Virus record (IMG/VR): IMGVR_UViG_3300032401_001514
Span: 32,001 to 96,000 of that record
Strand: one strand, 5' to 3'
DNA from: a virus
Length of the DNA stretch: 64,000 nucleotides
Shown: positions 14,300 through 43,602 of the stretch, piece after piece
Position numbering within the stretch: position 1 is the first letter of the stretch
How the letters are laid out: each line of letters begins with the position of its first letter
Position numbers and translations under genes: made by a program
Notes under the pieces: model-generated
What the model saw: only the letters and a program-made list of their open reading frames with translations
Told to the model about the DNA's origin: nothing
Database searches by the model: none

Positions 14300-14479
14300 T
14301 TATTTTTTCAAAACAGGAATTTCTTCCGTTAATTTAATCCATTCTTCTAAACTAACTTCAGCAGAATTTACTATTTTCTTAAGAGAGTTATTAGAATCTT
14401 TTGCCCCAAGAATAATAGCTATCTTATCTTCGGAATAATAAATTTCTATAAAGCTGTTGTTATCAAAATCTATTCTCAT
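14300..14479 (-). CDS. Small hypothetical protein (59 aa)
   Basis: Manual translation MRIDFDNNSFIEIYYSEDKIAIILGAKDSNNSLKKIVNSAEVSLEEWIKLTEEIPVLKK*; ATGA overlap with the LAGLIDADG stop. Confidence 0.6.
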   Translation of the reverse strand: MRIDFDNNSFIEIYYSEDKIAIILGAKDSNNSLKKIVNSAEVSLEEWIKLTEEIPVLKK

Positions 14480-15297
14480 AATTTCCTATTTAAATATTTT
14501 TTTCTAGTAACAACAATTGATTGACACAGATCATATTTTCGTTTCAAATATATTGTTGAATCATTATACAAATAATCTTTTATTTCGGTGCAAATTATAT
14601 TTCCTGAATATTTTAACATTCCGAAACCACTGTTTATTTTTGGTCTTGTTTTTGAATTTATATGCAAATTATTTTCAAAAATATTCATAAATTGGGTTAA
14701 CACAGATATTGTCCCACGTATATTAATCTCTGCTTTTCTTGGCAATTTAGAAAATGTAATACATCCATCACCATCAAAATAACCTCGAATAAAATGGTTT
14801 ACTAATTTATGAGTAATTAACCAATTAGGCATATCATATATATGGGTTTTTCTTTGTGTTAAATTAAATCTATTTAAATCATCAAATAATTGACTTGATG
14901 ATATGCATATAGTATGTTTTATACTATCTTTCCATTTGCTGTTTGTAAGACTATGTTTTGTTATTGATTTACTAATTGGGCCACTATAATTTAATGTATT
15001 TTTTAATAATTGCACATGGCTTAAATCTTTTTCTGCTAATGACAAAATTAATCTTTTAGAATTTTGTTTTTTATATAAACAGCCATCAGCTGCTAAAAAT
15101 CCGGCCCAATAAAAACTAGCCTCATTATCTTTTGAAAAAAAATAATGATTGCATTCATATCTGCTTCTTGTTGTAAATAAATGACTTAAATCATTAAGCT
15201 CAAATAATAAATCTTTATAATTTATATTAAATTTATCAGATATATTTTTCAATAAATTATTTTTAATAATTTCTAAACTTATTTTTTCATTCGTCAT
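14476..15297 (-). mobile_element. Free-standing two-motif LAGLIDADG homing endonuclease
   Basis: YWAGFLAADGCL and FIRGYFDGDGCI motifs. Confidence 0.9.
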
Positions 15298-25731: not shown

Positions 25732-27102
25732 CTATTTCTTTCTAAGATCTGTTACTCCGGAACCAAACACCTTGCTGAATTTAGAACTCTTCTTTTTAAT
25801 CTGTTGACGAATACGATCTGCCTCAGATGTAGCCTTCTCTGTTCCAGTATCAAGTGTTAGATTTAGATTGCGAGTATCCGCTCTATCTTTTGCCTTTGCG
25901 GCATCAGCTTGTGCTTCAGTCTTTAATTGTTTAACTCTAATGTCGGGCAATCCTAAACCCGAGAACATAGAGTAAACCTTAACAACATCCTCTTCTATAT
26001 CCGCAGTATAAATGCCTTTGAATACAGCTTCGGCATGCCCACAAACATCACGAATTAATTCCATAGCCAAATTAACACTGCCATTTGGTATTTCGCTCCA
26101 AACTTTTTTATTGGCTACAAAAAATACCCCGGCGTATCTCGTTTGTTTCAAATCAAATCCGCTAGCAAGCAAACCTGAATCCAAGTTATCTACAACTGAT
26201 TCGGCTAGCGCCATTGATTCTTGATAGTTAGCAATAGTCATTTCTCCATAAACGGATAATCCCTCGCCATCAATAAATAATTTCGCAAACTCCATTGAGT
26301 CCAAGCTCTTAACGGCCGAAGCTTCAGAAGAAAATCTATTAAATGCGTCAATTGGTTCAACGATTGCCTGATTACTTATGTTAAAGAAATCCATTATTCC
26401 AACGTCATTATATATGGATTCAATTTTAGCATTATCCACAACAATAAGGTTACTGATAGATTTGCTTTGTGTAAGTTTGGCTAACTTAGACAATGTATGA
26501 AGGGCATTGTTTTTTGTCTGTGTATCATCTGTGCTCATAGGGAGAACAGTAATAACAGTAACTGGCTTTCCTGTAGCAGTTAATACATCAATCATTGTTT
26601 CACACGAGCCAGCTCCTGATCCTCCGCCTAAGCTGAGACACAATAGAAATACTTGCGAGTCTCCAAGCTTATCGTGAACCAATTGATTAATACCGTCGCG
26701 ATGTTTTTCGGCAGCTTCGGCTCCAATGTCAATATCTTTTGCTGCACCGCCAATGCCATGCTCTAATAAATATTTGTTATCTTCTGGAATTTTAATATGT
26801 TCTAAATCCTGAGAGGCAGTATTAAAACAAATGGAAGAATAACCTAAATTATAAAAAGACTCTGCCAATCTAGAGCCAGCCTGCCCCGTTCCTACTACAC
26901 CGAATTCAATACTTCGTTTCTTCTTCTGTATAATTTTTGGCGGCATGGCGTTTTCCTTTTGTTTGCTAGCGAGCTTTGCTCTTAGTTCTTGAAGCTTCTG
27001 TTGATCCACTTCGTCATCTTTTTGACTTACATCTTCGTTTGATATATCATCATGGATTTGCTTTTGTTCTTGTGTTATATCTTCGTTTTTTACACCACTC
27101 AT
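25732..27102 (-). CDS. Tubulin/FtsZ-family GTPase (PhuZ/TubZ-like)
   Basis: VVGTGQAGSRL, signature GGGSGAG, T7-like LDSMEF; ATG 27102 forms an ATGA overlap with the upstream stop and has an AAGGA RBS. Confidence 0.9.
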   Translation of the reverse strand: MSGVKNEDITQEQKQIHDDISNEDVSQKDDEVDQQKLQELRAKLASKQKENAMPPKIIQKKKRSIEFGVVGTGQAGSRLAESFYNLGYSSICFNTASQDLEHIKIPEDNKYLLEHGIGGAAKDIDIGAEAAEKHRDGINQLVHDKLGDSQVFLLCLSLGGGSGAGSCETMIDVLTATGKPVTVITVLPMSTDDTQTKNNALHTLSKLAKLTQSKSISNLIVVDNAKIESIYNDVGIMDFFNISNQAIVEPIDAFNRFSSEASAVKSLDSMEFAKLFIDGEGLSVYGEMTIANYQESMALAESVVDNLDSGLLASGFDLKQTRYAGVFFVANKKVWSEIPNGSVNLAMELIRDVCGHAEAVFKGIYTADIEEDVVKVYSMFSGLGLPDIRVKQLKTEAQADAAKAKDRADTRNLNLTLDTGTEKATSEADRIRQQIKKKSSKFSKVFGSGVTDLRKK

Positions 27103-28079
27103 TGCTTTTTTCCTTCTGTTAATCTTAGAAACCATTGATTGTTATTATACCAATCCAAAGTTTGTTTTAACCCTTGTTTAAATTTGAATTTTGGTTCCCA
27201 TCCAAGGGTTTTAAGTTTATCGTTGGTTGTTGAATATCTATAATCATGCCAAGATCTATCTTTTACAAATTTAAGCAGATTATGTCCTCGACCTAATATA
27301 TTAGCTATTTGTTGGAACATCTCTACGTTAGTAATTTCTTGCTTGGCCGAAATATTATAAACTTCATTTAACGGCGCATGTTCAATTATTTTTATTATTG
27401 CATCACAATTATCCTGAACATGAATCCAACTTCTTATCTCCATTCCTTGACCATAAATAGGAGCCTCATATCCATCCAATATATGCGAAATTATTGACGG
27501 AATTAGATTTTTATTAGACTGTCTTGGGCCATAATTATTACAAGATCTAGTAATGTTAAATGGCAGTCCATAAGTTTCATGGGCGGCTTTTACGATTAGC
27601 TCTCCAGCTGCTTTGGATGCCGAGAAAGCGTTTCGTGGATTTAATGGAGAGTCCTCTGTCCAAGATGGAGAGTCCTCACTAGTTAGCTGTCCGTATACTT
27701 CGTCAGTGCTAGTATAGATGAATCGCTCAACTCCCCAACGAACAGCGGCATCAGCCATTGTTTGTGTGCCAAGAACATTAGATGTAATAAATTTTTGAGA
27801 CTCATCTATAGAATGGTCGCTATAATTTTCAACAGCTCCATGTATAACAATATCCGGCCTTTCGACTTCAAATACTATATTAACAAAATGTTTATCAGCA
27901 GCATCACCAACATAAAATATATGGTTCTTATTGGTATATATTGTATTAAGAACGCTACTATTAGTTATTTTATCTATACTAACAATTTGGTAAGCCGAAG
28001 AATCCTTTAAAACTTTACGAATAAAGTTAGAAAAAATAAATCCTCCAGAACCTGATATTAATATTTTCTTTTTTGTCAT
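27099..28079 (-). CDS. dTDP-glucose 4,6-dehydratase (RmlB)-like SDR with catalytic Tyr replaced by Phe
   Basis: STDEVYG, SCNNYGPRQ, DYRY conserved; YxxxK reads FSASK. Confidence 0.85.
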   Translation of the reverse strand: MTKKKILISGSGGFIFSNFIRKVLKDSSAYQIVSIDKITNSSVLNTIYTNKNHIFYVGDAADKHFVNIVFEVERPDIVIHGAVENYSDHSIDESQKFITSNVLGTQTMADAAVRWGVERFIYTSTDEVYGQLTSEDSPSWTEDSPLNPRNAFSASKAAGELIVKAAHETYGLPFNITRSCNNYGPRQSNKNLIPSIISHILDGYEAPIYGQGMEIRSWIHVQDNCDAIIKIIEHAPLNEVYNISAKQEITNVEMFQQIANILGRGHNLLKFVKDRSWHDYRYSTTNDKLKTLGWEPKFKFKQGLKQTLDWYNNNQWFLRLTEGKKQ

Positions 28080-28103: not shown

Positions 28104-28940
28104 TTAATAGCAACGCTTAAACATTTGGCGTTTGGCAGCATCGCTTATTGGCCCGATAGAATTTGCTGAGCGCCCACGACCGTTAGAATCGGAAGGGAAT
28201 AGTTCATTGGCCAAGGTATCTGTAATAACACTATGAATTTCCTCTTTGCTTGGGAGCTTTATATTTTCTACATCTTCCGTTTCAAGACTCTTATAAGCAG
28301 AAGCTAATATTTTATTAACTAGTAATAGCTTTCGTTTTGCTTGCCAATACTCTTTGGTAGCATCAGCAACTAGATTCTCAAACTGCTGAACCCTTTGCAA
28401 AGCAGAGCGAGTGATGAGCCATGCAGCTAAACCGGCTGTTGCATTGCCATCATTTTCTGAACTAGTAGCACCGGCTGTTGCATTGCCATCATTTTCTGAA
28501 CTAGTAGCACCGGCTGTTGCATTGCCATCATTTTCTGAACTAGTAGCTCCATATGTATTTTGGAAAGCATCAGCTACACTTTCCGGTAATTCATATTGGT
28601 ACGGTCCTTCGAGGCCCCCGGCAAGGTCGTTGTGCCCATAGTCAAACCCAATAACCTTCTTTAATTTTCTGATGGTTTGATCGATTGTGTTACCAGATTT
28701 GGTTTTAACAAAATCAGGAACAACCGCCTTTGGTTGCGAAGTTAAATCCTGTGCTAAATTATCATAACCCAATTGTGAGGCTATTGAGCTAGCCATATTA
28801 GGCCTGGCTTCATTTACTCTGCGCACTCGTATAGTTGCTTTCTTGCCAAGCTTGCTTTTTTGAGATTTGATTTTAGATTTGGCGCGGCTTACAGACCGGG
28901 CTACGTTAACTTCGGAAGAGCTTCTTGTTTTATTTTTCAT
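28104..28940 (-). CDS. Hypothetical protein with basic N-terminus and 13-aa tandem repeat
   Basis: K/R-rich first ~47 aa; GATSSENDGNATA x3. Confidence 0.7.
   Translation of the reverse strand: MKNKTRSSSEVNVARSVSRAKSKIKSQKSKLGKKATIRVRRVNEARPNMASSIASQLGYDNLAQDLTSQPKAVVPDFVKTKSGNTIDQTIRKLKKVIGFDYGHNDLAGGLEGPYQYELPESVADAFQNTYGATSSENDGNATAGATSSENDGNATAGATSSENDGNATAGLAAWLITRSALQRVQQFENLVADATKEYWQAKRKLLLVNKILASAYKSLETEDVENIKLPSKEEIHSVITDTLANELFPSDSNGRGRSANSIGPISDAAKRQMFKRCY
28431..28547. repeat. 39-bp perfect tandem repeat x3 (in frame)
   Basis: ACCGGCTGTTGCATTGCCATCATTTTCTGAACTAGTAGC at 28431, 28470 and 28509. Confidence 0.95.
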
Positions 28941-29877
28941 GATTAATCCTATTTACATACCATTGAATTGTTTTAATCAGCCCATCAGTAAAAGGAGTTT
29001 CCGCCTTCCAGTTGAGCAAATCCGCAGCCCTAGAAACGTCTAATCGTCTTTTTGGTTGTCCATCAGAAACTTCGCCAGTAAATACGATTTTGCCCTTATA
29101 GTTTGTTAGATTTGCTATTAAGTGAGCCAGGTTTTTTATAGATATATCACAACCTGTTCCAAGATTAATAGGTTCGGGATAATCTAAGCCAGTCGCTACA
29201 GCTTTGACAATTGCTTGAGCAGCATCTCCGGCATATAAGAATTCACGAGTGGCTTCGCCGGTCCCCCAGCATTCAACAGTCGGTTTATCTTCTTTAACGG
29301 CAGAACAAAATTTATTAATTAAAGCTGGTATAACATGGCTGTTTTCTAAATCTGTATTATCATGCGGGCCGTACATATTTACAGGAACTAAATGAGCGCC
29401 TTTTAATCCATATTGTTTGCGATATTCCTTCTGTAACATAAACAACATTTTTTTCGATAAACCATATCCGGAATTAGTTTTTTCTGGAAAACCGTTCCAA
29501 AAATCATCTTCTTTAAATGGGACTGGACAATTTTCTGGATATGAACACACGCTTCCTAAAGTATAAACATATTCTGGTGTATATTTAAAAATGGCATCAA
29601 ATAAATTGATTGCCATTTTTAAATTAACATGTGTTAAATCGGCCGAGCATTTTTTATTTAAACCAATTCCTCCACAATAAGCAGCCATATGTAAAACAAC
29701 ATCTGGCCTATTTTTATCGAAATAATCTATGACAGAACTTTGATTGGTCAAATCAAGCTGGCTACTACTCGGAGTTAATATAGAACTTGAATTAGTGCCG
29801 AATGATTTGTTTGCATATATTGTGTGCATCACATGTTTGCCCAAGAAGCCATTTGCTCCTGTTATTAATAATTTCAT
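28930..29877 (-). CDS. fcl: GDP-L-fucose synthase (epimerase/reductase)
   Basis: GANGFLG, SVCSYP (catalytic Cys), GYGLSK, SHVIPAL (catalytic His), WGTGEATREFLY, DGQPKR. Confidence 0.92.
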   Translation of the reverse strand: MKLLITGANGFLGKHVMHTIYANKSFGTNSSSILTPSSSQLDLTNQSSVIDYFDKNRPDVVLHMAAYCGGIGLNKKCSADLTHVNLKMAINLFDAIFKYTPEYVYTLGSVCSYPENCPVPFKEDDFWNGFPEKTNSGYGLSKKMLFMLQKEYRKQYGLKGAHLVPVNMYGPHDNTDLENSHVIPALINKFCSAVKEDKPTVECWGTGEATREFLYAGDAAQAIVKAVATGLDYPEPINLGTGCDISIKNLAHLIANLTNYKGKIVFTGEVSDGQPKRRLDVSRAADLLNWKAETPFTDGLIKTIQWYVNRINHEK

Positions 29878-30872
29878 TTACTTTCCTTTATTAATTTTTC
29901 TTCTTGGGCTAATTTAAGATCTTCTGTAACCATTTCATCAATCAATTGTTCAAAAGAATATTTTGGTGTCCAGCCAAGTTCTGTTCTTAGTTTTGTAGAA
30001 TCGCCTTGTAGAGAATCAACCTCTGCTGGACGAAGATATTTTGAATCAAACTCAATGTATTTATTTGGATCAAGATCTAATTTTGCGAACGCCAGATCAA
30101 CAAAGTCTCTAACGGAATATTGAGTCCCGGTTGAAACAACATAATCATCTGATTTTTCGGCGGTTGCGATCAAATATACTGCATTAGCCGTATCTTTTGC
30201 GTGACCCCAGTCTCGTCTTGCGTCTAAATTACCAAGGTAAAGTTTATGCTGTAGACCCAGCTTTATTCTGGTAGCAGCGCGAGTGATTTTTCTGGTAACA
30301 AATGTTTCCCCTCTTTTTGGACTTTCGTAATTAAACATAATGATATTTGAAGCAAATAAATTATATGATTCTCTATAGTTAACAGTTGCATAATAACCTG
30401 CAACCTTAGCGACTCCATATGGGCTTCTTGGTCTAAATTTTGTTTCTTCGTTTTGCGGAGGAAGAGTTGAGCCAAACATTTCTGATGACGAACATTGAAC
30501 AAATCTTGTATTTGGGCTGTATTTACGAATAGCTTCAAGGCATCTGATTACACCAGTTCCTGTGATATCCATTGTGTATTCGGGTATATCGAATGAAACA
30601 CGGACATGAGATTGCGCCCCAGCATTAATAAAGATATCTGGTTTTATACTTGAAACAAAATTAATAATAGATGTAGCGTCAGATAAATCACCATATACTA
30701 ATTCTAATTTGTTATCTATATGAGGATCTATATAGAGATGATCTATTCGTTCTGTGTTTAAAGTAGAGCTGCGCCTTTTAAGACCATATATTTTATAGTT
30801 TTTTTCTAGAAATAACTCGGCTAAATAAGAACCTAGTTGGCCATTTATACCTGTGATACAAACTGTTTTCAT
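29874..30872 (-). CDS. gmd: GDP-mannose 4,6-dehydratase
   Basis: AQSHVRVSF, SSSEMFG, PRSPYGVAK, FVTRKIT, LGNLDARRDWGHAKD. Confidence 0.95.
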   Translation of the reverse strand: MKTVCITGINGQLGSYLAELFLEKNYKIYGLKRRSSTLNTERIDHLYIDPHIDNKLELVYGDLSDATSIINFVSSIKPDIFINAGAQSHVRVSFDIPEYTMDITGTGVIRCLEAIRKYSPNTRFVQCSSSEMFGSTLPPQNEETKFRPRSPYGVAKVAGYYATVNYRESYNLFASNIIMFNYESPKRGETFVTRKITRAATRIKLGLQHKLYLGNLDARRDWGHAKDTANAVYLIATAEKSDDYVVSTGTQYSVRDFVDLAFAKLDLDPNKYIEFDSKYLRPAEVDSLQGDSTKLRTELGWTPKYSFEQLIDEMVTEDLKLAQEEKLIKESK

Positions 30873-31123
30873 GTTTTTCCGTACATTTTAGTTGAGCCTT
30901 GTTTATATAGCTTTTGTAATTCACCTGTTTTTATAAGATGATTAATTTTCTCATCAATTTCTTGAATCAAATCATTTCTTTGTTGATTAGCTATATTTGT
31001 TATTTGGGTTGCTTTCGCCATCTCTTCATTAGATACGTCTTCTTTTCTTTTAATATCTTCTGCCATCCATATGCGTAAGTTCACCACGGTAAGCTTATCT
31101 ATTAAATTACCTATTGTTTCCAT
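30869..31123 (-). CDS. Small helical protein (DUF4254-like)
   Basis: METIGNLIDKLTVVNLRIW...NQQRNDLIQEID pattern; coupled to gmd. Confidence 0.6.
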   Translation of the reverse strand: METIGNLIDKLTVVNLRIWMAEDIKRKEDVSNEEMAKATQITNIANQQRNDLIQEIDEKINHLIKTGELQKLYKQGSTKMYGKT

Positions 31124-31908
31124 ATGTTTCCATTTTCTTTTATATCACCAATGGTATCAGATAATAAATTATCATAAGAATATTTCCATTCTACATCAGC
31201 CATAATTAATTTTTGTTTATCTTGCGCTTTATTGCTTTTTTCATTTACAAAATAATTAAAATCTAATTCATTTAATTTATAAAGATCTTTAATAAAATCT
31301 CCAACATGAAATAATCTACCAGCACCAACAACGCAATCATTATTTTTTTCTATACTCTTTGTAACTAAAAATTTAGTATGTATCATGTCTCGATAAAAAT
31401 CTAAATTTCCTACATTTATTTTTGTTTTATTAATAATTGAATTAAAAATTTTACCAAACAAAAAACATTCATTTCTATATACAGAATTAAAATAAAAAGG
31501 ATGTATAAGAACAACCTTATAATATGTATCATCTATCAATCTTCGTTCTTTTATTTTATTTAAAAGCAATAATTTTGATATGGCATATTCATTATTTATG
31601 TTAAAATAAGGATTGGAATTTAAAGATATATGCCCAGATAATTTGTTCCAAAGTTCACAGCTAGTATAGCATACTATTTTATTTGAATTTTTTAATAATG
31701 CCTCAATAATATTTAGCGTATAAATATAATTAGGCGTAATATAATCTATATTTGTTTCATAAATTCTTTGTTCAGCAAAGGTAATATAAACTGATTCCCA
31801 TATGTTATTTTTTAAATAATCAAAATCAATATTTCTTGAGGATATTTTCGTGAATCCTTCATTTGGAAAATATTTTGAAAGCTGAGAATTACCTATTACC
31901 AAATGCAT
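31111..31908 (-). CDS. Atypical NAD-dependent epimerase/SDR-like protein
   Basis: YAISK motif and RDMIH; degenerate Gly-rich loop. Confidence 0.6.
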   Translation of the reverse strand: MHLVIGNSQLSKYFPNEGFTKISSRNIDFDYLKNNIWESVYITFAEQRIYETNIDYITPNYIYTLNIIEALLKNSNKIVCYTSCELWNKLSGHISLNSNPYFNINNEYAISKLLLLNKIKERRLIDDTYYKVVLIHPFYFNSVYRNECFLFGKIFNSIINKTKINVGNLDFYRDMIHTKFLVTKSIEKNNDCVVGAGRLFHVGDFIKDLYKLNELDFNYFVNEKSNKAQDKQKLIMADVEWKYSYDNLLSDTIGDIKENGNIWKQ

Positions 31909-33127
31909 ATGAGCTATCTATAACCTCGAATTTAGGACATGGAACAATAAATTTCCCACCATTAGCCAAGTACTCTTTTTCTCTATCGCAAAATTCGTTA
32001 ATGAAATGCCATGGAAGAACTAATAAATAATCAGGTTTTGCTTTGTGCATATCTTCTTCTGAGTAAATTATGATGTTAGTACCCAAAGTTTTTAAACCAA
32101 ATTTATAAGGATTTCTTTCAGCTATACCATCTATTAAAGTATTATCTAATCCAAAATATTGTAATAATGTATTTCCTTTGGTAGATGCTCCATAAGCCCA
32201 TATTGTTTTTCCATTGCTTCTTTCTTGTTTTATAAAAGAAACAGTTTGTTCTTTTAATTGATTGATCTTATTATAAAAATCTAACCAAGTGTTTACCTCA
32301 TCTAATTTCAATGTTTTTTCATATTCTAATAATGATTTGATTCTAAAATTAGAAACGTCTCTATGAGATTGTGTGGCAAATTTTTTTAAATTAGCCACAT
32401 CTTTCATTATATAAATTCTAAAAGAACCGCCATTAATATCATTCAATTGACAATCAACGATTTTAAAATTATTTTTTTCTAATATAGATTTTAAATTGAA
32501 TAATGAGTAATAAAAAATATGTTCATGGCATATATTATCGAAAGCTAATTGTTCTAACATTAGCGGCGTATAACTCAATTGCATCACCCATAAACCATTA
32601 TCATCTAATATTTCATTGATATCTTTTATAAACTGTTCTGGATATTCAAGATCGTAAAACATTGCTATTGAAGTAATAATTTTAGCTTTTAAATTTCCAT
32701 ATTTGGTTAATTTAAATGTGGTGGCTTTAAAAAAATCTTGAATAATCAAATTCGCATGTTTTTCGGATTCAACCTTGTAAGTGTCGTCAGCTGGATCGAT
32801 GCCTATTCTAATCAAATTGGTAGGCACAAAACTAAGCAGCGTGCCATCGTTTGCAGCTATGTCTATCCATAAATCATCTTGTTGTAATTTATATACAGAA
32901 GTTATTGAATTAACAATTTGATTCAATTCATTTTTCATTGTTGTATTAATACCACTGCGGTACCAATATTTACCATACATTGAATCAAACGGAGCAATTT
33001 TATTTAATCGAATATTTCCATCATCAGTTAAGAATAAATTCATTTCTATTTTATCGCTTCGGGGTACATCTTCGTCCTTGATAAAATCAGAAACGTATAG
33101 TTCTCCCAAAGTAAATAGCTCTTTCAT
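31889..33127 (-). CDS. NDP-hexose C-methyltransferase-like SAM-dependent enzyme
   Basis: DIAANDGTLL, FDNICHEHIFYY, AYGASTKGNTLL, LLVLPWHF. Confidence 0.85.
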   Translation of the reverse strand: MKELFTLGELYVSDFIKDEDVPRSDKIEMNLFLTDDGNIRLNKIAPFDSMYGKYWYRSGINTTMKNELNQIVNSITSVYKLQQDDLWIDIAANDGTLLSFVPTNLIRIGIDPADDTYKVESEKHANLIIQDFFKATTFKLTKYGNLKAKIITSIAMFYDLEYPEQFIKDINEILDDNGLWVMQLSYTPLMLEQLAFDNICHEHIFYYSLFNLKSILEKNNFKIVDCQLNDINGGSFRIYIMKDVANLKKFATQSHRDVSNFRIKSLLEYEKTLKLDEVNTWLDFYNKINQLKEQTVSFIKQERSNGKTIWAYGASTKGNTLLQYFGLDNTLIDGIAERNPYKFGLKTLGTNIIIYSEEDMHKAKPDYLLVLPWHFINEFCDREKEYLANGGKFIVPCPKFEVIDSSYAFGNR

Positions 33128-33140
33128 TATTAACCTAAGC

Positions 33141-34037
33141 TTAGAATTTGTCTAATGTTTCTTGGACAGCGCGCTCAAATCCACGATTCATTTGTTCTAA
33201 TGACATATTATCACAAACGAAGCTATTAACGGAACCATTAGCAATAACCGAACTTACTATGGTTTGGCCACAAAGCTCAACTCTTGGCACTGGTTTATTG
33301 TTCCAACAGCTAACGGCCACGGTAATGCCACTAGACACTCCAATAAACAAATCACAATAATTATGAATTAAAGCTGTTTGTCTTACTGTAAAATCAGAAC
33401 AAGAAACAACGCCTGAATCATCAATATATTTTACATAATCTATTTTGCTAGCAAAAATAAAATTACATTTTCCAAATTTATTTCGACATAATTGCATTAT
33501 ATTTTTGGTTACATCTTCGCTTAATTGAAAATTACCAGCTGATCTTAGTTGCGATTCGAACATAACAGTTTTTGTATGCGGTAAACTGGAACAAAAATCT
33601 TTTGCTTTATTTCGTTCTTCATCAGAAAATCCTAAGTATGGATGCCACTCCCAAGATGGATCTGCACCGTAAACCATTCTTGGTATGTTTGAATAATTTA
33701 CATTATCGAATATTTTATTAGGCAGCATGGCCCAAGGAGCTGGAAAATATCCATTATGCAAATCTTTCATAGACTCAAAAGCGTCCCTTTTGTCTAAACA
33801 AAGCTGTCCATTTGCATTCATTATTTCTCTAAAATCTACACGCGGCCAATCTCTTACCTCAGTAATAGCATCATTAAATTTCAACATATCTAAGTAAGTG
33901 TGTTTATCAGCAGAATGATTACAATACCATATAATCTCTTTACCAGGCCATAATATATCTTTATATTTCAAAACACAAGTACACAACCCAATATCTCCAT
34001 GTTGTCCATGAACGAAAATTCCAATTTTATCTGCCAT
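33141..34037 (-). CDS. GT9-like glycosyltransferase
   Basis: N-terminal GQHGD and C-terminal CDLFIGVSSGI. Confidence 0.55.
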   Translation of the reverse strand: MADKIGIFVHGQHGDIGLCTCVLKYKDILWPGKEIIWYCNHSADKHTYLDMLKFNDAITEVRDWPRVDFREIMNANGQLCLDKRDAFESMKDLHNGYFPAPWAMLPNKIFDNVNYSNIPRMVYGADPSWEWHPYLGFSDEERNKAKDFCSSLPHTKTVMFESQLRSAGNFQLSEDVTKNIMQLCRNKFGKCNFIFASKIDYVKYIDDSGVVSCSDFTVRQTALIHNYCDLFIGVSSGITVAVSCWNNKPVPRVELCGQTIVSSVIANGSVNSFVCDNMSLEQMNRGFERAVQETLDKF

Positions 34038-34046
34038 ATACTCTCC

Positions 34047-34847
34047 TTAAAATCCAGGGCAATCTAAAATAACATTTTTTTCTTGTGCATATTTTTTCAC
34101 AACTTCTAAAGCGCGCGGCGGAATATGCTCAGTAATTCCACCAATTAAAACATCATGATGCTTCTTACAATGAGCGCAGAAAAATGTATTCAATTTATTT
34201 GCTTCACGAAATGATAGGCCGGGCACTGGTTCATCATTTTCCACGTATGATGGAATAGGAACTCCGCCATCATTAAAATAACCATTAACTATTTGTCCTT
34301 GGTTATTATATTGAGGGTGACCATAATGAACAATTAAATCATGTGTAATATTTGGGTAAATTTCGTTGGCTAAAAACCCTTGATCATAAGTGTTATCTTT
34401 GCTAAATTTTTCTACCATTTCATTCATTTTTGAAAGAATATAATTTCTAACACCCCACATGCCACCCATTATTTTTTGACTATGATAACAATGGTCTCTT
34501 ATAATATGAAAATTCTTTTTGCCATCAAGCCATTGGTCTACACAAACTTTCTCTCTTGATGATACCCAAGAATCAGCGTCTCTAGATATCATAACGACAC
34601 CATACTCAGAGGCGGGCAAGAATCTCCATAACATAGCTTCGCTGCCACGATGAGTTGGCATAACTACAATTTCTACATGTTCGAATGTTCTAAGAAGTTT
34701 TTCTATACACGACGGAATAGTGTCATCAATATAAAATCTAGCAATCCAATCAGGATAAATATAAGGGATTAATAAACAATTTATAATTGCGTTAATTGTG
34801 TCTTTTGGTCTATTATTGTAAAGTGAGTAACTTATTATTTTTTTCAT
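34047..34847 (-). CDS. Unclassified GT-A-like glycosyltransferase
   Basis: KKIISYSLY, WRFLP, SRDADS (DxD), FHIIRDH, GGMWG, DQGFL. Confidence 0.6.
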   Translation of the reverse strand: MKKIISYSLYNNRPKDTINAIINCLLIPYIYPDWIARFYIDDTIPSCIEKLLRTFEHVEIVVMPTHRGSEAMLWRFLPASEYGVVMISRDADSWVSSREKVCVDQWLDGKKNFHIIRDHCYHSQKIMGGMWGVRNYILSKMNEMVEKFSKDNTYDQGFLANEIYPNITHDLIVHYGHPQYNNQGQIVNGYFNDGGVPIPSYVENDEPVPGLSFREANKLNTFFCAHCKKHHDVLIGGITEHIPPRALEVVKKYAQEKNVILDCPGF

Positions 34848-35517: not shown

Positions 35518-36294
35518 TTAATAAAAATATTTCAAAAACAAATCCATTCTTTTTTTGTGTCCATCAGCAAATACTGGATTGGCAGCATTCCATTGCGAGC
35601 CTGCCATATAATGATAAAACCCTTCGGCTATCCAGCCAGCACTTAAACCATGTGTTCTGCAAATGTCTAAGTCAGCTTTAAAATACTCAGCGAAAGGCCC
35701 TTTGCCTTCTAATGTAGCAAGAAAATAAGAAGTTTGATGATTAGCCATAAATTTAACTGAATTAGGATTTTTTTCGATAAATGTTTTAGTTTTTCCTCCG
35801 GTGTCCAATCCCGTATCTAAACCAAAATCTAATTCACGAACATTGTTTAAAAGTTTCATATTAACAATTGTAAAAGCTGGATAAAAATAATTAACGCCCT
35901 TGCCATTTAAAATCCTAAACTCGGTAGTACTTGCGGCAATGTTGCCAGCTATGATATCCGATATTGATACATCACATATAGGAAACACATCCGAGTGAAC
36001 AAGAACTATAATCTCACAATTATTATTTACAGCATAATTATGTACGGCCCAATTTAATGCTGATGCATAACACTCAGAGGGATTTTGAACAGTATGGATA
36101 TTTTGAGGTATTCTTACGCAGTTAATATTATTATAAGAAGCTATTTCATTAATGTTCTTTTCCATTTTAGAATCAAATGCATCGTTTAATAATACAAAAT
36201 CAAAATCTTCTTTCATATATTTTTTGAACTGTCTATGCATGATATCAAGAGGAAATTTATCATTTACAGCGAAAGAAAGAATAGATATTTTCAT
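35518..36294 (-). CDS. Putative glycosyltransferase
   Basis: GT-A-like pattern DFDFVLLND, LVHSDVFP, DTGG, YHY; location within the island. Confidence 0.5.
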   Translation of the reverse strand: MKISILSFAVNDKFPLDIMHRQFKKYMKEDFDFVLLNDAFDSKMEKNINEIASYNNINCVRIPQNIHTVQNPSECYASALNWAVHNYAVNNNCEIIVLVHSDVFPICDVSISDIIAGNIAASTTEFRILNGKGVNYFYPAFTIVNMKLLNNVRELDFGLDTGLDTGGKTKTFIEKNPNSVKFMANHQTSYFLATLEGKGPFAEYFKADLDICRTHGLSAGWIAEGFYHYMAGSQWNAANPVFADGHKKRMDLFLKYFY

Positions 36295-37187
36295 AAATGC
36301 TCCATGTGATTAATAGTATCTATTAAACCAGATTCTATTTTTGTAAAAGAAAGGGTTGGCATTATGCCTTTCAAATAATAATTGCTTACGGTTTTTTTAA
36401 AGTTTCCATCTTGTTTGCTTGTGTCAAATTTAATTTCATTTTTAAATTGTGTTATTTTGCCAATGCATCTTGCTAAATCAGAGATGGTAATTTCCTCATC
36501 ACTACAACATATGATTGGTTTATCACCAGAATAATTCATAACTAAATGTTTAATTATTTTAGCTAAATCCATAGAATAAATAAATTGTCTCAAAGGCTTT
36601 CCTGTGCCATTAATTACGACATCTGTATTTGTTTTATTAGCTTCTTTGAATTTAGAAACCAAACTCGGTATCAATCTGCCAGATTTTATATTATCGTTCG
36701 CCCCATAAATATTACAAGGTATAATGCCAAAATATTTTCTATTATATTGCGCATTGTAATTTTGGCATTGTAACGCAAGCATTCTTTTTGAATAAGCATA
36801 TCCAGCAAAAGCTCCGGTTAAATTGCTTTCAAAAATCATAGATTCGTCCATTGGAAATTTTGAAGGCATCTCTGGAAACATATTTACCGACAAACAAAAC
36901 ATTCCATTTTGTATTCCGGCTAAATTTGAGGCCTCTAATACGTTTTCATTTATTCTAACATTATTCGAAAACGAAGACACTTTGTCAATATTATAAAAAC
37001 CAGGAACATATGAAGCCAAATGAATAATATAATCTGGACCTATAGTCCTCACCAAATCAATCGTTCGTTCTCTATTAGTTAGATCGCAGTCCTTTCTTTC
37101 AATAAAAACCCAATTATCTTCTTCTGAACACAAAGACTTTAAAGAACTGCCTACGCATCCGTTGCTGCCTGTAACAAGAATTTTCAT
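36291..37187 (-). CDS. Fcl/ColC-family GDP-sugar 4-reductase lacking both epimerase residues
   Basis: GSNGCVG, GYAYSKR, PCNIYG, GTGKPLRQFIY; the Cys position reads N (SVNMFP) and the His position reads R (SGRLIP). Confidence 0.85.
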   Translation of the reverse strand: MKILVTGSNGCVGSSLKSLCSEEDNWVFIERKDCDLTNRERTIDLVRTIGPDYIIHLASYVPGFYNIDKVSSFSNNVRINENVLEASNLAGIQNGMFCLSVNMFPEMPSKFPMDESMIFESNLTGAFAGYAYSKRMLALQCQNYNAQYNRKYFGIIPCNIYGANDNIKSGRLIPSLVSKFKEANKTNTDVVINGTGKPLRQFIYSMDLAKIIKHLVMNYSGDKPIICCSDEEITISDLARCIGKITQFKNEIKFDTSKQDGNFKKTVSNYYLKGIMPTLSFTKIESGLIDTINHMEHL

Positions 37188-38368
37188 GGTTTATAACTCA
37201 ATAGTATATCGATTAATTCTTCAACTAAAAAGTCTGGCATCAAGTTACTTGATAGTCCAATAAACAAACCGTGAAAATGACATTGCTCAGCTCCTGGAAA
37301 ATTTAACGGATTTAAACTTGGATAAAGATCCTTAATAACTGGCTGTCTTATAATATTACCAGTAATAATTGGTCTATTTTCAACTCCGTTATTTGTTAGA
37401 TAAGATAAATAATTTGGTAAAGATACGCTTTTATCTAAAAACAAAACAATGCCAAACCATATAGCATCGGTGTCCTCGCTTGATTCAGCAAAAGAAAGAA
37501 AAGTATTTCTTGGGTCAGTCTCTATTCTATATTTAATATAATTGTAATTTATCTTTCTATTATTGTTTTTTTCTTGAAGTTTGTTTAGCTGACTAATGCC
37601 CATTGAGGCTTGTATTTCCATCGGTCTTACATTATATCCTAAATTAACAAATGTAAATCTAGGATCTAAATCAGGGTATTGTTTTTGTATCTCTTCTTTA
37701 TTTGTTAGGTTTCTTGACCACCCATGAGCACGAAGGCACTTCATTAACTCATAACTCTCATCATTATTACATACCACCATGCCTCCCTCCATAGTAGTTA
37801 AATGATGAGAATAATAAAATGAATACGTTCCAATATCTCCAAATGTTCCGAGATATTTAGTTTTGTACTTTGAGCCTAGAGATTCACAAGTATCTTCTAT
37901 TAAAAGTAAATTATAGCGATTAACAATATTCATTAACTTTTCCATGTTAGTAGAGTTTCCTAGAACATGAACAAGCATAATAGCTTTTGTTTTATTCGTA
38001 ATTTTATTTTCAAGATCTTCTAAATTTATATTCAATGTTTTTGAATCTACATCTACAAATATAGGTGTGAGATTTGATTGAATAATTGGGAATACACTAG
38101 TAGACCAGCATAAAGCCGGAACCAAAACTTCATCGCCAGGCATTAATCTATTAGCACATTTGTAATTAGAAAGAGTAGATAGTGCTATTAAATTAGCTGA
38201 TGATCCAGAATTTACCATCAGCGCATGTTTTGCTCCAATATATTCTGCAAATATTTTTTCGAATTCATTTACTTGCTCACCCATAGTAAAATTTTCAGTA
38301 AGCAAAGTCTTAACCATCTCTATAATATCATTAGAGTCATGAACATTTTGGCCTAATGGAAATTTCAT
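37184..38368 (-). CDS. colD: GDP-4-keto-6-deoxymannose 3-dehydratase (ColD), PLP-dependent
   Basis: FTMGE, EDTCESLG, SFYYSHHLTTMEGG (His in place of the Schiff-base Lys), LRAHGWSR, GYNVRP; no RfbH-type Fe-S Cys motif. Confidence 0.85.
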   Translation of the reverse strand: MKFPLGQNVHDSNDIIEMVKTLLTENFTMGEQVNEFEKIFAEYIGAKHALMVNSGSSANLIALSTLSNYKCANRLMPGDEVLVPALCWSTSVFPIIQSNLTPIFVDVDSKTLNINLEDLENKITNKTKAIMLVHVLGNSTNMEKLMNIVNRYNLLLIEDTCESLGSKYKTKYLGTFGDIGTYSFYYSHHLTTMEGGMVVCNNDESYELMKCLRAHGWSRNLTNKEEIQKQYPDLDPRFTFVNLGYNVRPMEIQASMGISQLNKLQEKNNNRKINYNYIKYRIETDPRNTFLSFAESSEDTDAIWFGIVLFLDKSVSLPNYLSYLTNNGVENRPIITGNIIRQPVIKDLYPSLNPLNFPGAEQCHFHGLFIGLSSNLMPDFLVEELIDILLSYKP

Positions 38369-39432
38369 AATTGGCTCTCAATGCTAGTAAGAATCTGTTT
38401 CCAACTTATATAAATTGATTCTTTTCTTAACACATTATAGTTGGCCATATTATTGCTAATTTCTTTTAAATTTACTGTGTTTAATAGGTGTTGCAAATGA
38501 GACTGGGAATCAAAATATTGAACATGTTTCATGTTTTCTGTATCATAAAAATCACAAGTATCTATCCACATATCTAAAATTTTTGGATTACGTAGACTGT
38601 TCGGATTATCTAAATCATCAGGCTCTTTAACTTTTTCAATTTTATAAAAAGTCAAGTCAGAAAACATTTTATTTTGACAGATAAGTTCTTTGGCATATTG
38701 TTTTGAAGGCATAAACAGCGGAACATTTGCTGTATATTGTTCGAATATAGACATACTGCCATTATGATAAGGCAGATGAATTATACCTTTGTAACTATAA
38801 AGATCTTTCCAATCGTATCTCCAAGAAGCATTTCTAACTGTGCCCAGCCCAACACATAAATTACCGGGCACTGTTATATCTGAGCGATCATGTATAACAT
38901 ATTTATTTTTTGTTCCTGTGTATTTGGCATTTGTGTACTCGCATAAATTTGGAATATGCATTCCTAAAATGCCATTCAAATAATGCGAATAATACTGATC
39001 TCCTTTGTTATTACAAACATAATATAGTTTACCTTCATTATGCTTTAGTTTTAAAAAATCATTTAATCTGTCTCTAATTGCTGGAGTAAAAGTATTTGGA
39101 TGGTCATATCTTACACAATTAACTATTATGATTGGCTTATTCCACCTTTCATAAAGCATAGCAAATTCTACTGGATAACACGCAATAAACCCGTCATATT
39201 TGCTAAGCTCGTCTTTATTCTGTTCATAAAACATATCACAGACTTCTTGGGTACAAACCCCTGAACAAGTTAACTGTGTGCCATTGCTAAGCATAATTTG
39301 GGACTTTGGTTTGTTCATAACCCAATGATGGCCAGATAAAGACCAATCATCAACTTCATGTCCTAAATTTTTGAAAATGTGAGCTATGTCAGAGATGACC
39401 GATACATGCTGATCTATATTGAAAAACTTCAT
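38365..39432 (-). CDS. Putative GT-B glycosyltransferase
   Basis: FFNIDQHVSVI start, KGIIHLPY..MSIFEQYTANVPLF donor-site-like motif; island context. Confidence 0.5.
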   Translation of the reverse strand: MKFFNIDQHVSVISDIAHIFKNLGHEVDDWSLSGHHWVMNKPKSQIMLSNGTQLTCSGVCTQEVCDMFYEQNKDELSKYDGFIACYPVEFAMLYERWNKPIIIVNCVRYDHPNTFTPAIRDRLNDFLKLKHNEGKLYYVCNNKGDQYYSHYLNGILGMHIPNLCEYTNAKYTGTKNKYVIHDRSDITVPGNLCVGLGTVRNASWRYDWKDLYSYKGIIHLPYHNGSMSIFEQYTANVPLFMPSKQYAKELICQNKMFSDLTFYKIEKVKEPDDLDNPNSLRNPKILDMWIDTCDFYDTENMKHVQYFDSQSHLQHLLNTVNLKEISNNMANYNVLRKESIYISWKQILTSIESQL

Positions 39433-40088
39433 AACGCTTCTTTTAATGTAATATGTAGTACGCTTTCTTTATCAGTAAAATCATGCCACGTTATTTTTTC
39501 TACCTTTGGGTTTGATAGAATAAATTTTTCTATTTTATCAATAGCATATACATTATGATATAAATCTTCTTCTTCCCAATAGTTAATCTGATCTTCGCCA
39601 GCAGCCGTCCATGGCTTTTGTTTTAATGATTCTGGTAGTTCGTCATCATATAATGGAATAGAGCCAGGCTTTAAAAACCAAACTATAATTACTTCTTTTT
39701 TGCCGATTCTAATAAATTCATTTATTGCATTTTCATAATATGACAAATGCTCAACAACTTCCCTACAAAATACACACTCATATGCATTGTCCCCAATTGG
39801 CAAAGTGCAATCTAAATCAGCTTCAACCATATGAATGCCCTGTGAGGCATTAAAATCTATAAAGTATTTACAGCTGTCAGCCCCAGTATACTTTATATCA
39901 TAATTGTCATTATACTTATATCCATAATATTCTGTTGCGAAACCGCATCCGCAATCTAAAATGCTTTTATAGTTCTTTTTTATAACATGGTTTCTGCAAT
40001 AAACTTTATTTGGGTTATTAAAATCTTTAACCCACCCAAAAAAAGTTTCAAGATTATTTTTTACATTTTTATTCCACCAAGTTGTCAT
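39429..40088 (-). CDS. Class I SAM-dependent methyltransferase
   Basis: SILDCGCG, FCREVVEHL. Confidence 0.8.
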   Translation of the reverse strand: MTTWWNKNVKNNLETFFGWVKDFNNPNKVYCRNHVIKKNYKSILDCGCGFATEYYGYKYNDNYDIKYTGADSCKYFIDFNASQGIHMVEADLDCTLPIGDNAYECVFCREVVEHLSYYENAINEFIRIGKKEVIIVWFLKPGSIPLYDDELPESLKQKPWTAAGEDQINYWEEEDLYHNVYAIDKIEKFILSNPKVEKITWHDFTDKESVLHITLKEAL

Positions 40089-40816
40089 ATTTTATTCCAC
40101 GTAATAGGAGTTAAATTTTTTGTATTATGTTGTAATTTTGGCCCAAACCAATTTTTTGGCGCAATTATTTTTTTATTAGTGTTTTTGTTTAAATACGCCG
40201 CCCACCACGAATAACTACTATTAGCTATAATATTATTTTCGCACGACGACATTAAAGACATATCAATATGCGGCTCATTGCCTTCTATAAAAACAAATTT
40301 ATCGCCCTTGAATTTTTCTTTGCACCAATTTATATCATCAGAAAACACAAAATAACAATCAGATTTGATAATATTCATTGCTTCTTCATAATAACTTGTA
40401 TTTGCTAAATCTGTATAATAAGAATTGCCAAGTTTAGTATAATCACCTCTTCTTATATGCATAGAGGTAACGCCTGTATTTTCAGGAAAACATTGTTTAT
40501 ATTCAAACAATGTTTTTATTTCTTTTTCATATTCTTTAAAATATAATTCTGATTGATAATACCCAGATAAATTCAAATTTGGTTGATATGGAATTGTAGC
40601 ATAATGAAAAAATGGCTCGACATATGTTTTAGAATATTGTATGGTTTCTTTTGTGAATTTGTCATCGGGGATATTAAAATGCTCTCTGTCTTTCCAATTA
40701 TCAGGAAAAATATAATCATCATTATTTTTTAAAGCCGTAGCAATTGTCGCTGCCGCCTGAAAAAGACAATTTCCAGTCCTGCCACAATTTCCAAAATCTA
40801 AATATGTAACAACCAT
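40085..40816 (-). CDS. Alpha-1,2-fucosyltransferase family (GT11)
   Basis: GRTGNCLFQ, GYYQSELYF, HIRRGDY, FSDDINWC, IIANSSYSWWAAYL. Confidence 0.92.
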   Translation of the reverse strand: MVVTYLDFGNCGRTGNCLFQAAATIATALKNNDDYIFPDNWKDREHFNIPDDKFTKETIQYSKTYVEPFFHYATIPYQPNLNLSGYYQSELYFKEYEKEIKTLFEYKQCFPENTGVTSMHIRRGDYTKLGNSYYTDLANTSYYEEAMNIIKSDCYFVFSDDINWCKEKFKGDKFVFIEGNEPHIDMSLMSSCENNIIANSSYSWWAAYLNKNTNKKIIAPKNWFGPKLQHNTKNLTPITWNKI

Positions 40817-43602
40817 TATGTTCTTATTTTTTCATGATGTTTTTCTAATAACAATATTATTGGATCGAAATTATCGCTTTTCCATAAATGTTTGAATTTT
40901 TCAATGTTTTGCGGGTAATGATAGCTTGGGCTTAATGATAAAGGAGCGTGATCTAAGAAATATCTATTTATAGCCGTTTCGTCATGCCATAATGGAATTA
41001 TACCGTTTTTAACATCTTGTTCTATTTTAGATGCGCACCACTCGGAAAGCTCTAAATATTTATCCTTTCTGCCACCGCTAAACCCGCCTCCATAATAATA
41101 AGTATATTTATCAGACGGTGTATATAAACAAGAGCTTGTATTTGTTTCAAATGTGCCGCCGCCATGATAATAACCACAATGTCTTACACCAACTAAATCA
41201 CCAAGAGTCTCACCAGAAACTCTATTTATAAACAGGCAGTCAGCATCAATATAGTACAAATAATCCATGTCATTAAATATTTCTTTATTTTCGCTGAAAT
41301 ATTTAAACCTATTCATACTAGCAAAAGGAAATGGAACATGCTCTATATGAACTTGTTTAACACTTCTTGTTGTTAATATATCTTGAGTTTCGTCAGAAAA
41401 TACAAAATATGACACCTCTGAGTCGGCATTATTGAAAAAATATCTATCGGCTGACGAAATCAACGGGGCAATAAAAGATTGATATTTTGATGTGCCTATA
41501 ATTATCAATCCAATTTTATGTTTAATTTCTTGTTTTTTATTTTCAACTGAGGTTTTGTTATATTTAGTTTTTCTTCTTATTAAACCATCCAAGCTAGCTT
41601 GTAACTGTTTATTAACTTTATGATCGTTTATTGGATTTTGAAGATTATAAGTATATAAAGCTTCGCTTATAAATTTCGAATGAATTCCAGACATTTCTAA
41701 CATTGGATACATAATGGCCAGATCCCATGTCATAGCGAAAAACTTTCCATCATTATTAATTAAGTCATTTTTATTTATCTTTTTAAATAACCAGGCATAG
41801 AAAGTTCTCAAATGTGAAGAACACCATGTAAAAGATCTATATGTATTTGATTGTGTAATTTTATCAGGAATTTGTTGTGATACGCCGAGCGCTCCATCTG
41901 GATAATTTTGATATTGCCCATAAGTTAACCATATGTCTTTGTTTTTATAAACATTATTTAAATAATTCAAGACATTTTCGTTTGATAACCAATCATCTCC
42001 ATCCAATGTTAAAATTATTTCATCATCAGCGCAACTATGTATTGCATTATACAAATTTTCTAAAGCGCCAAGACGATTTATATTTTTAACAATAATTGTT
42101 TTTATATTGCCTTTATATTTGTCTATAATTTCACGGGCTTTAATAAACGTTTTATCAGATGAACAATCGTCAATATATATAATTCTATAGTTTACGTAAT
42201 TTTGTTGTATTGCAGAACGTAAATTATTTTCCACCCATTGCTCATTATTATAACTAGGAATAACAATAACAAACTTTTTATCTTTACCAACAGATAAATT
42301 AATATTATCACTTAACGGCACGTTACTTAATGTATTTAATATAATCGGATTCTGTATTATATTATCTGTATTATAATTAAAATTAACTGGTTGATAAAAA
42401 AGTGCTGCATTTATTTTTGCTGTCGGTACTGCTGCTACCGCCGTTGCTGATGCGTTTTTTATACCATTTATTAATTTAATACGCTCAACAAATAATTCGC
42501 CAACTGAATTTGACCCTCTACTTATTTTTATTTTATAACTAGCTGCTGGACTTCCTGATTTAAGTTTAAAAAATAATTCAGATTTTTTTTGATGTGCTAA
42601 CAATGTTATAACACTTTTTATATTATTATCATCATCAATAATACTAACTTCTAATTTCCCATTCCCGTTTATTTTATTAGCAGTGATAACAACTACATAT
42701 TCAAAATCAGGCTGTATAGTTGTAATTGGTATGCAAAAAGAAGAGCCTCTTGGCATAATGATACCATTTGCCACATTAGATAATGATCCAACAACAGACC
42801 CGAAGGCGTTTATGTTTAAACCGCTTTGTGATGAATCGTACATAATAGATGATACAAATATATTGTTTGTTATTACTTGTGAAAATGTCTTATTTTTAAT
42901 TAATTCATTTGGCGACTTGTTAGAATTAATATCATAATTTGTTGTAATCGTTGGCGGAGACTCCATATTACGATACATTGGCTCAGAATGTATTTTATCT
43001 AAACTCGACAATTTAATATCAAGTATTTCACATGGTATCATAAATTTTATAAATCCGTCTTTATTAACAATTACATTAGGAGGCTGGGTAATTATAGATT
43101 CAATATTAGATGATTTTAAACTGCCTCCCTCTGATGCGAATAATTTGTTTTTTACTATCCTTACATTTTTACAAGGCTCACATTGTGCTATAATATTTCG
43201 CCAACTCATTGATTTAACCACTTCTTCATCTTGCATTATTTCTATATCCTCATTAGTTTCAATAATTATTCCAGATATTAATATCTTTCCAAATGTTCCA
43301 GGCTGTCGCATAATTTTAATTTTATCATATGATGTTGGAACTTGTATTGTTTCTTCATGCATTGAAGAAAACTTTGTATTAATATGAGATGATTCAGTTG
43401 CTATTATTATAGTGCCATTGCCAGATAAACGCCGTCCTTTAAAAGTAATACATTTTGCTATATTATTAAAATCCGAAAAATCAAAACTAACACTACCTGA
43501 TGGTTCTATTTCAATGGATCCATCAGATATATATCTACAAGAGCGTATAGAAGATACGTATTGTTTTAAATCATTGGCTGCTATTTCATATTTTTTATTC
43601 AT
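40816..43602 (-). CDS. Multidomain glycosyltransferase: N-terminal beta-sandwich pair + GT2 + C-terminal GT6 (ABO-type)
   Basis: GT2: VIPSYNN, IDDCSSD, LDGDDWL. GT6 (40816-41520): KIGLIIIGTSKY, YIDAD, YYGGGFSGG, WHDETAINRYF. Confidence 0.9.
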   Translation of the reverse strand: MNKKYEIAANDLKQYVSSIRSCRYISDGSIEIEPSGSVSFDFSDFNNIAKCITFKGRRLSGNGTIIIATESSHINTKFSSMHEETIQVPTSYDKIKIMRQPGTFGKILISGIIIETNEDIEIMQDEEVVKSMSWRNIIAQCEPCKNVRIVKNKLFASEGGSLKSSNIESIITQPPNVIVNKDGFIKFMIPCEILDIKLSSLDKIHSEPMYRNMESPPTITTNYDINSNKSPNELIKNKTFSQVITNNIFVSSIMYDSSQSGLNINAFGSVVGSLSNVANGIIMPRGSSFCIPITTIQPDFEYVVVITANKINGNGKLEVSIIDDDNNIKSVITLLAHQKKSELFFKLKSGSPAASYKIKISRGSNSVGELFVERIKLINGIKNASATAVAAVPTAKINAALFYQPVNFNYNTDNIIQNPIILNTLSNVPLSDNINLSVGKDKKFVIVIPSYNNEQWVENNLRSAIQQNYVNYRIIYIDDCSSDKTFIKAREIIDKYKGNIKTIIVKNINRLGALENLYNAIHSCADDEIILTLDGDDWLSNENVLNYLNNVYKNKDIWLTYGQYQNYPDGALGVSQQIPDKITQSNTYRSFTWCSSHLRTFYAWLFKKINKNDLINNDGKFFAMTWDLAIMYPMLEMSGIHSKFISEALYTYNLQNPINDHKVNKQLQASLDGLIRRKTKYNKTSVENKKQEIKHKIGLIIIGTSKYQSFIAPLISSADRYFFNNADSEVSYFVFSDETQDILTTRSVKQVHIEHVPFPFASMNRFKYFSENKEIFNDMDYLYYIDADCLFINRVSGETLGDLVGVRHCGYYHGGGTFETNTSSCLYTPSDKYTYYYGGGFSGGRKDKYLELSEWCASKIEQDVKNGIIPLWHDETAINRYFLDHAPLSLSPSYHYPQNIEKFKHLWKSDNFDPIILLLEKHHEKIRT

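Follow-up and report, generated by a model that had tools for sequence, protein, structure and literature searches.

A ColD-type dehydratase paired with an Fcl-family reductase lacking the epimerase dyad in huge phages: a possible GDP route to D-series 3,6-dideoxyhexoses

The 64-kb window analysed in this study (bases 32001–96000 of the 129.6-kb IMG/VR virus record IMGVR_UViG_3300032401_001514) is derived from a huge tailed phage of ∼430 kb and not from a bacterium. On its minus strand, two genes fill positions 36291–38368. The upstream gene codes for a ColD-like dehydratase and the downstream gene for a short-chain dehydrogenase/reductase (SDR) of the Fcl family, in which the Cys/His dyad of GDP-fucose synthase (GFS) is replaced by Asn and Arg (N/R enzyme). 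We regard it as an evenly balanced possibility that huge phages naturally make a 3,6-dideoxyhexose of the D series through a GDP-linked pathway, be it GDP-tyvelose or its D-lyxo isomer, that this pathway arose by loss of the epimerase function from a ColD/FX pair of the colitose type that giant viruses also have, and that the sugar is put on the virion or host surface by the phage's own coupled glycosyltransferases.

Results

The Fcl-like protein (298 amino acids (aa); 36291–37187, minus strand) aligns end to end with human GFS (4b8w, 194 bits). The SDR triad consisting of Ser100, Tyr130, and Lys134 is kept, and the GxxGxxG cofactor motif is intact ('TGSNGCVGS'). At the site of the Cys base (Cys109 in E. 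coli, Cys116 in human GFS) the GFS motif 'LSTCIFP' is changed to 'LSVNMFP', placing Asn102 at this position. At the site of the His acid (His179 and His186, respectively) 'EDGHVLP' is changed to 'KSGRLIP' with Arg171, just in front of which three residues are deleted. This alignment confirms a preliminary description of the locus, which had reported a Cys to Asn and a His to Arg replacement next to an intact YxxxK motif, and both residues in the second Fcl paralogue of the window (28930–29877). The NCBIfam equivalog model for Fcl (NF047922) scores the N/R enzyme with 155.7 bits, below its cut-off of 500. We annotate the protein as a putative NADPH-dependent C4 reductase without epimerase activity. 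A decaying pseudo-enzyme was considered and rejected, since the clade is conserved at 49–79% identity with the cofactor motif and the triad intact.

The preliminary description had asked whether characterised ColC enzymes also lack both residues. ColC of E. coli O55:H7 CB9615 and O111:H2 retains the Cys ('GSSCMYP') as well as the His ('SSHMIP'). Loss of the dyad is therefore no general trait of ColC, and the claim of an unusual paralogue stands.

The ColD-like protein (394 aa; 37184–38368, minus strand) belongs to the Pfam family DegT_DnrJ_EryC1 (PF01041, 280 bits). Of the solved structures, 2gms (E. coli ColD) scores highest with 278 bits over residues 2–372, compared with 231 bits for the E1 dehydrase 3bcx. 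The motif 'YYSHH' is aligned to 'FYSHH' of ColD, where the catalytic His, equivalent to His188, replaces the Lys that forms the Schiff base with pyridoxal 5'-phosphate. The phage homologues share this His without exception, and the first His of 'FYSHH' is the position altered in the ColD variants 3b8x and 2r0t. RAHGW is found at residue 213, and among the six Cys of the protein there is no CxC iron-sulfur motif, which sets it apart from E1/RfbH. Thus, each element of the ColD signature named in the preliminary description was recovered. The protein is 37–38% identical to ColD of E. coli O55/O111 and 53% identical to ColD of giant viruses, and the RfbH model scores 311 bits, under its cut-off of 423. 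An aminotransferase was rejected due to the catalytic His, and a CDP chemistry of the E1 type due to the missing Fe–S motif, the lower E1 score and the presence of Gmd in the same cluster. Gmd, the GDP-mannose 4,6-dehydratase (29874–30872, minus strand), exceeds the TIGR01472 cut-off of 415 with 425 bits and is the predicted source of the ColD substrate. Its location within 7 kb, together with an operon of the order ColD-reductase-Gmd-Fcl in the related contig L033, suggests that the ColD-like protein removes the 3-hydroxyl from a GDP-linked substrate, as expected for a GDP-4-keto-6-deoxy-D-mannose 3-dehydratase dependent on pyridoxamine 5'-phosphate.

The altered dyad is a feature of a large clade. 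Among the best 120 homologues, ∼100 clusters at the 90% identity level, which are 49–79% identical to the Fcl-like protein, have Arg at the His site and the three-residue deletion before it, and homologues at ≤50% identity are back to Cys/His. Since the substitutions are common to ∼100 clusters, they do not reflect chance. The Ser-Tyr-Lys triad is invariant across 133 aligned full-length family members. The Arg clade comprises 98 of these. Its members all have Arg at the His site but differ at the Cys site, where Asn (90), Thr (5), Ser (1), Gly (1) or His (1) is found; this variability makes a catalytic role of the site unlikely within the clade. The non-Cys clade is monophyletic (Shimodaira–Hasegawa-like approximate likelihood ratio test, 98–99) and nested within the eukaryote/giant-virus-type FX proteins, apart from bacterial Fcl, ColC and the phage's own canonical Fcl. 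Judging from this tree, the N/R gene is a derivative of the eukaryote/giant-virus-type FX and not a ColC orthologue. A scan of the GTDB species genomes revealed no relative of the reductase clade; as only pattern matches were considered, this is weak evidence for its absence from cellular genomes.

ColD and the N/R enzyme are tightly linked. The gene directly preceding the clade member is ColD in all 13 contigs with 5' flank, one of which is the window. L033 is another and codes for a divergent Ser/Arg member with 49% identity in its compact operon. In contrast, ColD is adjacent in none of the 11 giant-virus loci that the reductase query retrieved, all with a Cys/His homologue beside Gmd (Fisher p = 4e-7). 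The one DegT gene near these loci (L015) codes for a protein with the ordinary Lys ('SKH'). In the window both genes share an ATGA overlap at 37184–37187, indicative of translational coupling. An exhaustive profile search also recovered an ENA metagenome protein of 718 aa (P0124), in which ColD (residues 4–396, 59% identity) is fused in frame to an Fcl-like domain. The two parts are joined by a linker of eight residues, there is no internal Met, and the dyad of the Fcl-like domain is Gly/His. P0124 was grouped together with P0101 as sister to the Arg clade.

This linkage bears on the question whether the N/R enzyme acts after ColD at all. It might instead take the Gmd product as substrate and form GDP-D-rhamnose or GDP-6-deoxy-D-talose by direct reduction, with the ColD product left to the canonical Fcl. 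Both substrates would exist in the infected cell, and DdahC and MlghC, two Fcl-family reductases of Campylobacter jejuni, can likewise reduce 4-keto sugars derived from mannose in vitro (PMC7949155). However, the strict adjacency to ColD in 13 of 13 contigs, the ATGA coupling, the fusion in the sister lineage and the compact operon of L033 render a direct reduction very improbable.

The search from the ColD side identified two giant-virus contigs (GVMAG) with a canonical version of the pair. In L038 and L039, the gene for ColD (53% identity, 'YYSHH') precedes those for an FX protein that retains Cys/His (45% identity; L038:5223–6146) and for Gmd, and a GT11 enzyme is encoded in L039 as well. 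Gmd is divergent in both clusters (L038:3992–7175 and L039:254–4243). Thus, giant viruses have an apparently complete colitose-type pathway, as far as gene content can tell. These canonical pairs have the same gene order and are closest to both phage genes, so that the phage pair seems to derive from a canonical pair and the loss of the dyad is the derived state. The likely history comprises a single loss of Cys, giving a Gly/His stage as seen fused to ColD, and a subsequent change of His to Arg or Lys. Adjacency, the fusion in the sister lineage and the derivation from the giant-virus pair all support a tie between the N/R paralogue and ColD.

Published enzymology indicates what such replacements may cause. 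In human GFS, kinetic data attribute the role of general base to Cys116 and that of general acid to His186; C116A and H186A variants are inactive, while H186K is nearly normal and still epimerises (PMC12362431). The C116S variant forms mainly a product that is reduced before C5 epimerisation, there called GDP-D-altrose, and GFS normally releases the final product only (PMC12362431). The C. jejuni reductases MlghC (Y/R) and DdahC (T/H) have replaced dyads and no epimerase activity, and restoring the Cys in DdahC did not confer such activity; the epimerase GME has a Cys/Lys dyad (PMC7949155). Hence, reductase-only chemistry has a precedent in the C. jejuni enzymes, which act on heptoses.

It could be argued that the N/R enzyme is nevertheless bifunctional like ColC, epimerising C5 by means of another base and reducing C4, and produces GDP-L-colitose, which is then transferred by the nearby GT11 enzyme. 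The gene pairs with ColD as ColC does in E. coli, its product descends from a ColD-linked Cys/His enzyme, and the active H186K variant suggests that Arg might act as acid. We consider this reading unlikely, since the Cys base is gone and its site varies between Asn, Thr, Ser, Gly and His, and since the inactive C116A variant and the failure of MlghC and of Cys-containing DdahC to epimerise argue against a simple substitute. Moreover, enzymes paired with ColD keep Cys/His in E. coli ColC and in the FX proteins of L038 and L039.

In the pathway that we favour, Gmd, identified by its family assignment, would provide GDP-4-keto-6-deoxy-D-mannose. ColD would remove the C3 hydroxyl to yield GDP-4-keto-3,6-dideoxy-D-mannose, as suggested by its catalytic His and its closest solved match. 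The N/R enzyme, equipped with the SDR triad but no Cys base, would then reduce C4 with NAD(P)H and leave C5 in place, giving a GDP-3,6-dideoxy-alpha-D-hexose. Hydride delivery as in GFS on the D-series intermediate would result in the D-arabino isomer, which is GDP-tyvelose, otherwise in its C4 epimer with D-lyxo configuration. By standard sugar stereochemistry, the altrose-type sugar of C116S has the manno-type C4 configuration, and the D-arabino form is therefore weakly favoured. The coupled downstream glycosyltransferase would transfer the sugar, while the canonical Fcl would make GDP-L-fucose separately and in parallel. We hold reductase-only chemistry with a D-series product to be fairly probable, and give tyvelose as the specific product somewhat less than even odds. 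The reduction without epimerisation that had been put forward in the preliminary description is thus supported, whereas we infer the product, be it tyvelose-type or another.

Epimerisation might also occur in trans. In this case C5 would be inverted by another enzyme, which may be the phage's canonical Fcl, come from the host or be a phage protein not yet recognised, and the N/R enzyme would reduce the epimerised intermediate to an L-series 3,6-dideoxyhexose, with L-xylo (colitose) or L-ribo configuration. The 3,6-dideoxyheptose pathway of C. jejuni has such a division of labour, in that C5 is epimerised after the ColD-like dehydratase by an enzyme distinct from the Fcl-like reductase, and omission of the epimerase in vitro led to GDP-3,6-dideoxy-D-arabino- and D-lyxo-heptose (PMC10440746). 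In addition, all five contigs that extend past Gmd, one of them the window, code for a Cys/His Fcl. No function is assigned to the neighbouring proteins u355, u266, and u298; together with u258 they gave no match in profile searches of Pfam, NCBIfam, PHROGs and PDB.

On the other hand, an epimerase of the RmlC type (PF00908) was found neither in the phage record nor in its complete 428-kb relative or its 252-kb relative, although the same model detected one in 11 of 14 control genomes. The sole Cupin_2 matches were obtained in the 428-kb relative, >100 kb away from the module. The neighbour u258 (258 aa; 35518–36294, minus strand) has no Pfam match and was modelled by AlphaFold as a GT-A fold glycosyltransferase (predicted local distance difference test (pLDDT) 92; Foldseek matches to GT6, GT13, and GT8 enzymes with probability 1.0). 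Its gene is coupled to that of the reductase and lies directly downstream of it in all 12 related contigs holding u258, with the same order in the window. On the basis of this model, u258 is the likely candidate transferase for the product. For u355 (355 aa; 38365–39432, minus strand), which is 76–80% identical in relatives and always located directly upstream of ColD, the structure model was poor (pLDDT 43). Its Atlas neighbours are named phage glycosyltransferases, which we treat as a lead to a possible glycosyltransferase. GFS normally lets go of its final product only, which also speaks against epimerisation in trans. Taken together, we judge epimerisation in trans to be quite unlikely as well.

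The genes u355, ColD, the Fcl-like gene and u258 form a coupled run of four on the minus strand, within a glycan-building island of ∼22 kb (27.1–49.0 kb of the window). Its sugar enzymes include Gmd, two Fcl-family proteins, ColD, an RmlB-like SDR, a C-methyltransferase and other methyltransferases, and its glycosyltransferases belong to GT2, GT4, GT6, and GT11. The canonical Fcl (28930–29877, minus strand) is of the bacterial type with intact Cys/His and was assigned as GDP-L-fucose synthase by alignment, profile and tree. The GT11 enzyme (40085–40816, minus strand; PF01531, 84 bits) is of the alpha-1,2-fucosyl/colitosyl-transferase type and is conserved upstream in L003, L013, L025, and L027. 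The conserved 266-aa protein u266 (34047–34847, minus strand) has a DxD-like motif ('SRDADS') and is a module member in relatives.

The phage record has a judged completeness of ∼30%. Its nearest relatives are the 252-kb and 428-kb records, the latter of which has terminal repeats and a judged completeness of 100%. Around the island, Pfam identified phage-type genes for Baseplate_J, a tubulin/FtsZ homologue, DnaB- and UvsW-type helicases, a ribonucleotide reductase and a sigma factor. The tubulin/FtsZ-family GTPase (25732–27135, minus strand) is PhuZ/TubZ-like and encoded beside the UvsW-type and DnaB-type helicase genes. An open reading frame resembling a LAGLIDADG homing endonuclease is located at 14476–15297 (minus strand). 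Between the island and the baseplate/fibre genes, which code for the Baseplate_J protein and a 2234-aa Laminin_G_3 protein, lies the gene for a 982-aa dockerin type I protein (49051–51999, minus strand).

Further sugar genes were noted in the same phages. The RmlB-like protein (27099–28079, minus strand) is a homologue of dTDP-glucose 4,6-dehydratase with 328 bits on TIGR01181, just below the cut-off, and its catalytic YxxxK reads FSASK, with Tyr changed to Phe at residue 152. A second module consists of a C-methyltransferase (Methyltransf_14; 31889–33127, minus strand), an SDR-like 265-aa protein (31111–31908), a DUF4254 protein of 84 aa (30869–31123) and a 298-aa protein (33141–34037). All four genes are conserved in L013, L025, and L026 and also in L020, where the last one is cut by the contig end; L022 has only the 298-aa protein and the C-methyltransferase. 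The composition of this module suggests a pathway for a branched-chain sugar. Beside GT11, a 928-aa protein (40816–43602, minus strand) combines a GT2 domain (residues 446–563) and a GT6 domain (residues 680–904), and the order of the GT2, GT6, and GT11 enzymes resembles that for blood-group-like glycans. In the 428-kb relative, a further SDR is encoded beside a Cupin_2 protein (G001:C1:191602–193792), well away from the ColD module, and the two may belong to another sugar pathway.

Discussion

To our knowledge, no GDP route to tyvelose has been described, and tyvelose is made only through CDP. The only established routes that we know of are those to tyvelose, abequose and paratose via CDP and the one to colitose via GDP. 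We are also not aware of any report of the D-lyxo isomer of 3,6-dideoxyhexose in nature. 'GDP-tyvelose' was not mentioned in the literature searched. If the pathway proposed here holds, it would represent a new branch of deoxysugar biosynthesis, in which GDP carries a 3,6-dideoxyhexose of the D series, and huge phages would carry complete rare-sugar pathways. The clade also offers a natural experiment, in which an SDR epimerase-reductase may have turned into a plain reductase and can be compared with its canonical giant-virus counterpart and a Gly/His intermediate. For biocatalysis, the enzyme pair could serve in making rare GDP-dideoxysugars.

Several points weigh against a D-series product. 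We infer both the substrate and the product of the N/R enzyme, and another residue could serve as base. Due to the active H186K variant of GFS and the Cys/Lys dyad of GME, Arg at the acid site is not disabling by itself, and the case rests on the loss of the Cys base. The GT11 gene lies close by, and this family uses GDP-beta-L-fucose or colitose donors. Since no fold is assigned to u355, u266, and u298, a novel epimerase is possible among them, and the canonical Fcl nearby could epimerise in trans. The fusion protein P0124 is one metagenomic sequence on a 38-kb contig and can be taken at most as supportive.

The end sugar may be shared with the CDP-tyvelose pathway of Salmonella and Yersinia (RfbF/RfbG, E1/RfbH plus E3, Prt, and Tyv), which leads to 3,6-dideoxy-D-arabino-hexose and whose E1 is homologous to ColD. 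However, the CDP carrier, the start from glucose, the Fe–S protein E1 with its E3 reductase and the final 2-epimerase of that pathway are not present in the phage. More features are shared with the ColD–ColC pathway to GDP-L-colitose in E. coli O55/O111 and Yersinia pseudotuberculosis, namely Gmd, a His-type ColD, an adjacent Fcl-family SDR and GT11-type transferases in the cluster. ColC differs by its Cys/His dyad and by its position in a bacterial lineage of its own, whereas the Asn/Arg enzyme falls inside the eukaryote/giant-virus-type FX. The gene order is also different, with ColD preceding the reductase in the phage and ColC preceding ColD in the colitose cluster of E. coli.

The GVMAG clusters with ColD, FX (C/H) and Gmd contain the closest relatives of both phage genes in the same order, with 53% identity for ColD and 45% for FX. 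The giant-virus FX has retained Cys/His, and its product is presumably colitose or fucose, while the phage copy has lost both residues and has the three-residue deletion before Arg171.

With MlghC/DdahC and the GDP-3,6-dideoxyheptose pathway of C. jejuni HS:5/HS:11 the phage shares a dyad-replaced Fcl-like SDR and a ColD-like C3-dehydratase upstream in the pathway. The C. jejuni enzymes belong to a bacterial capsule pathway, act on heptoses, have Y/R or T/H dyads and a cupin epimerase as natural partner. The phage enzyme, in contrast, has an Asn/Arg dyad, most likely uses a hexose substrate and belongs to a different FX lineage, and no cupin epimerase was found in its module. Solved chains of the C. 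jejuni type (7anh, 7anc, 7cxt, 7m13, and 8ewu) align to it at residues 2–184 only with 68–87 bits, compared to 194 bits for GFS, and as far as these comparisons go the dyad was most likely lost independently. While the D-series dideoxy products of C. jejuni originate from non-natural enzyme mixtures, the pairing in the phage is natural, conserved and probably hexose-based.

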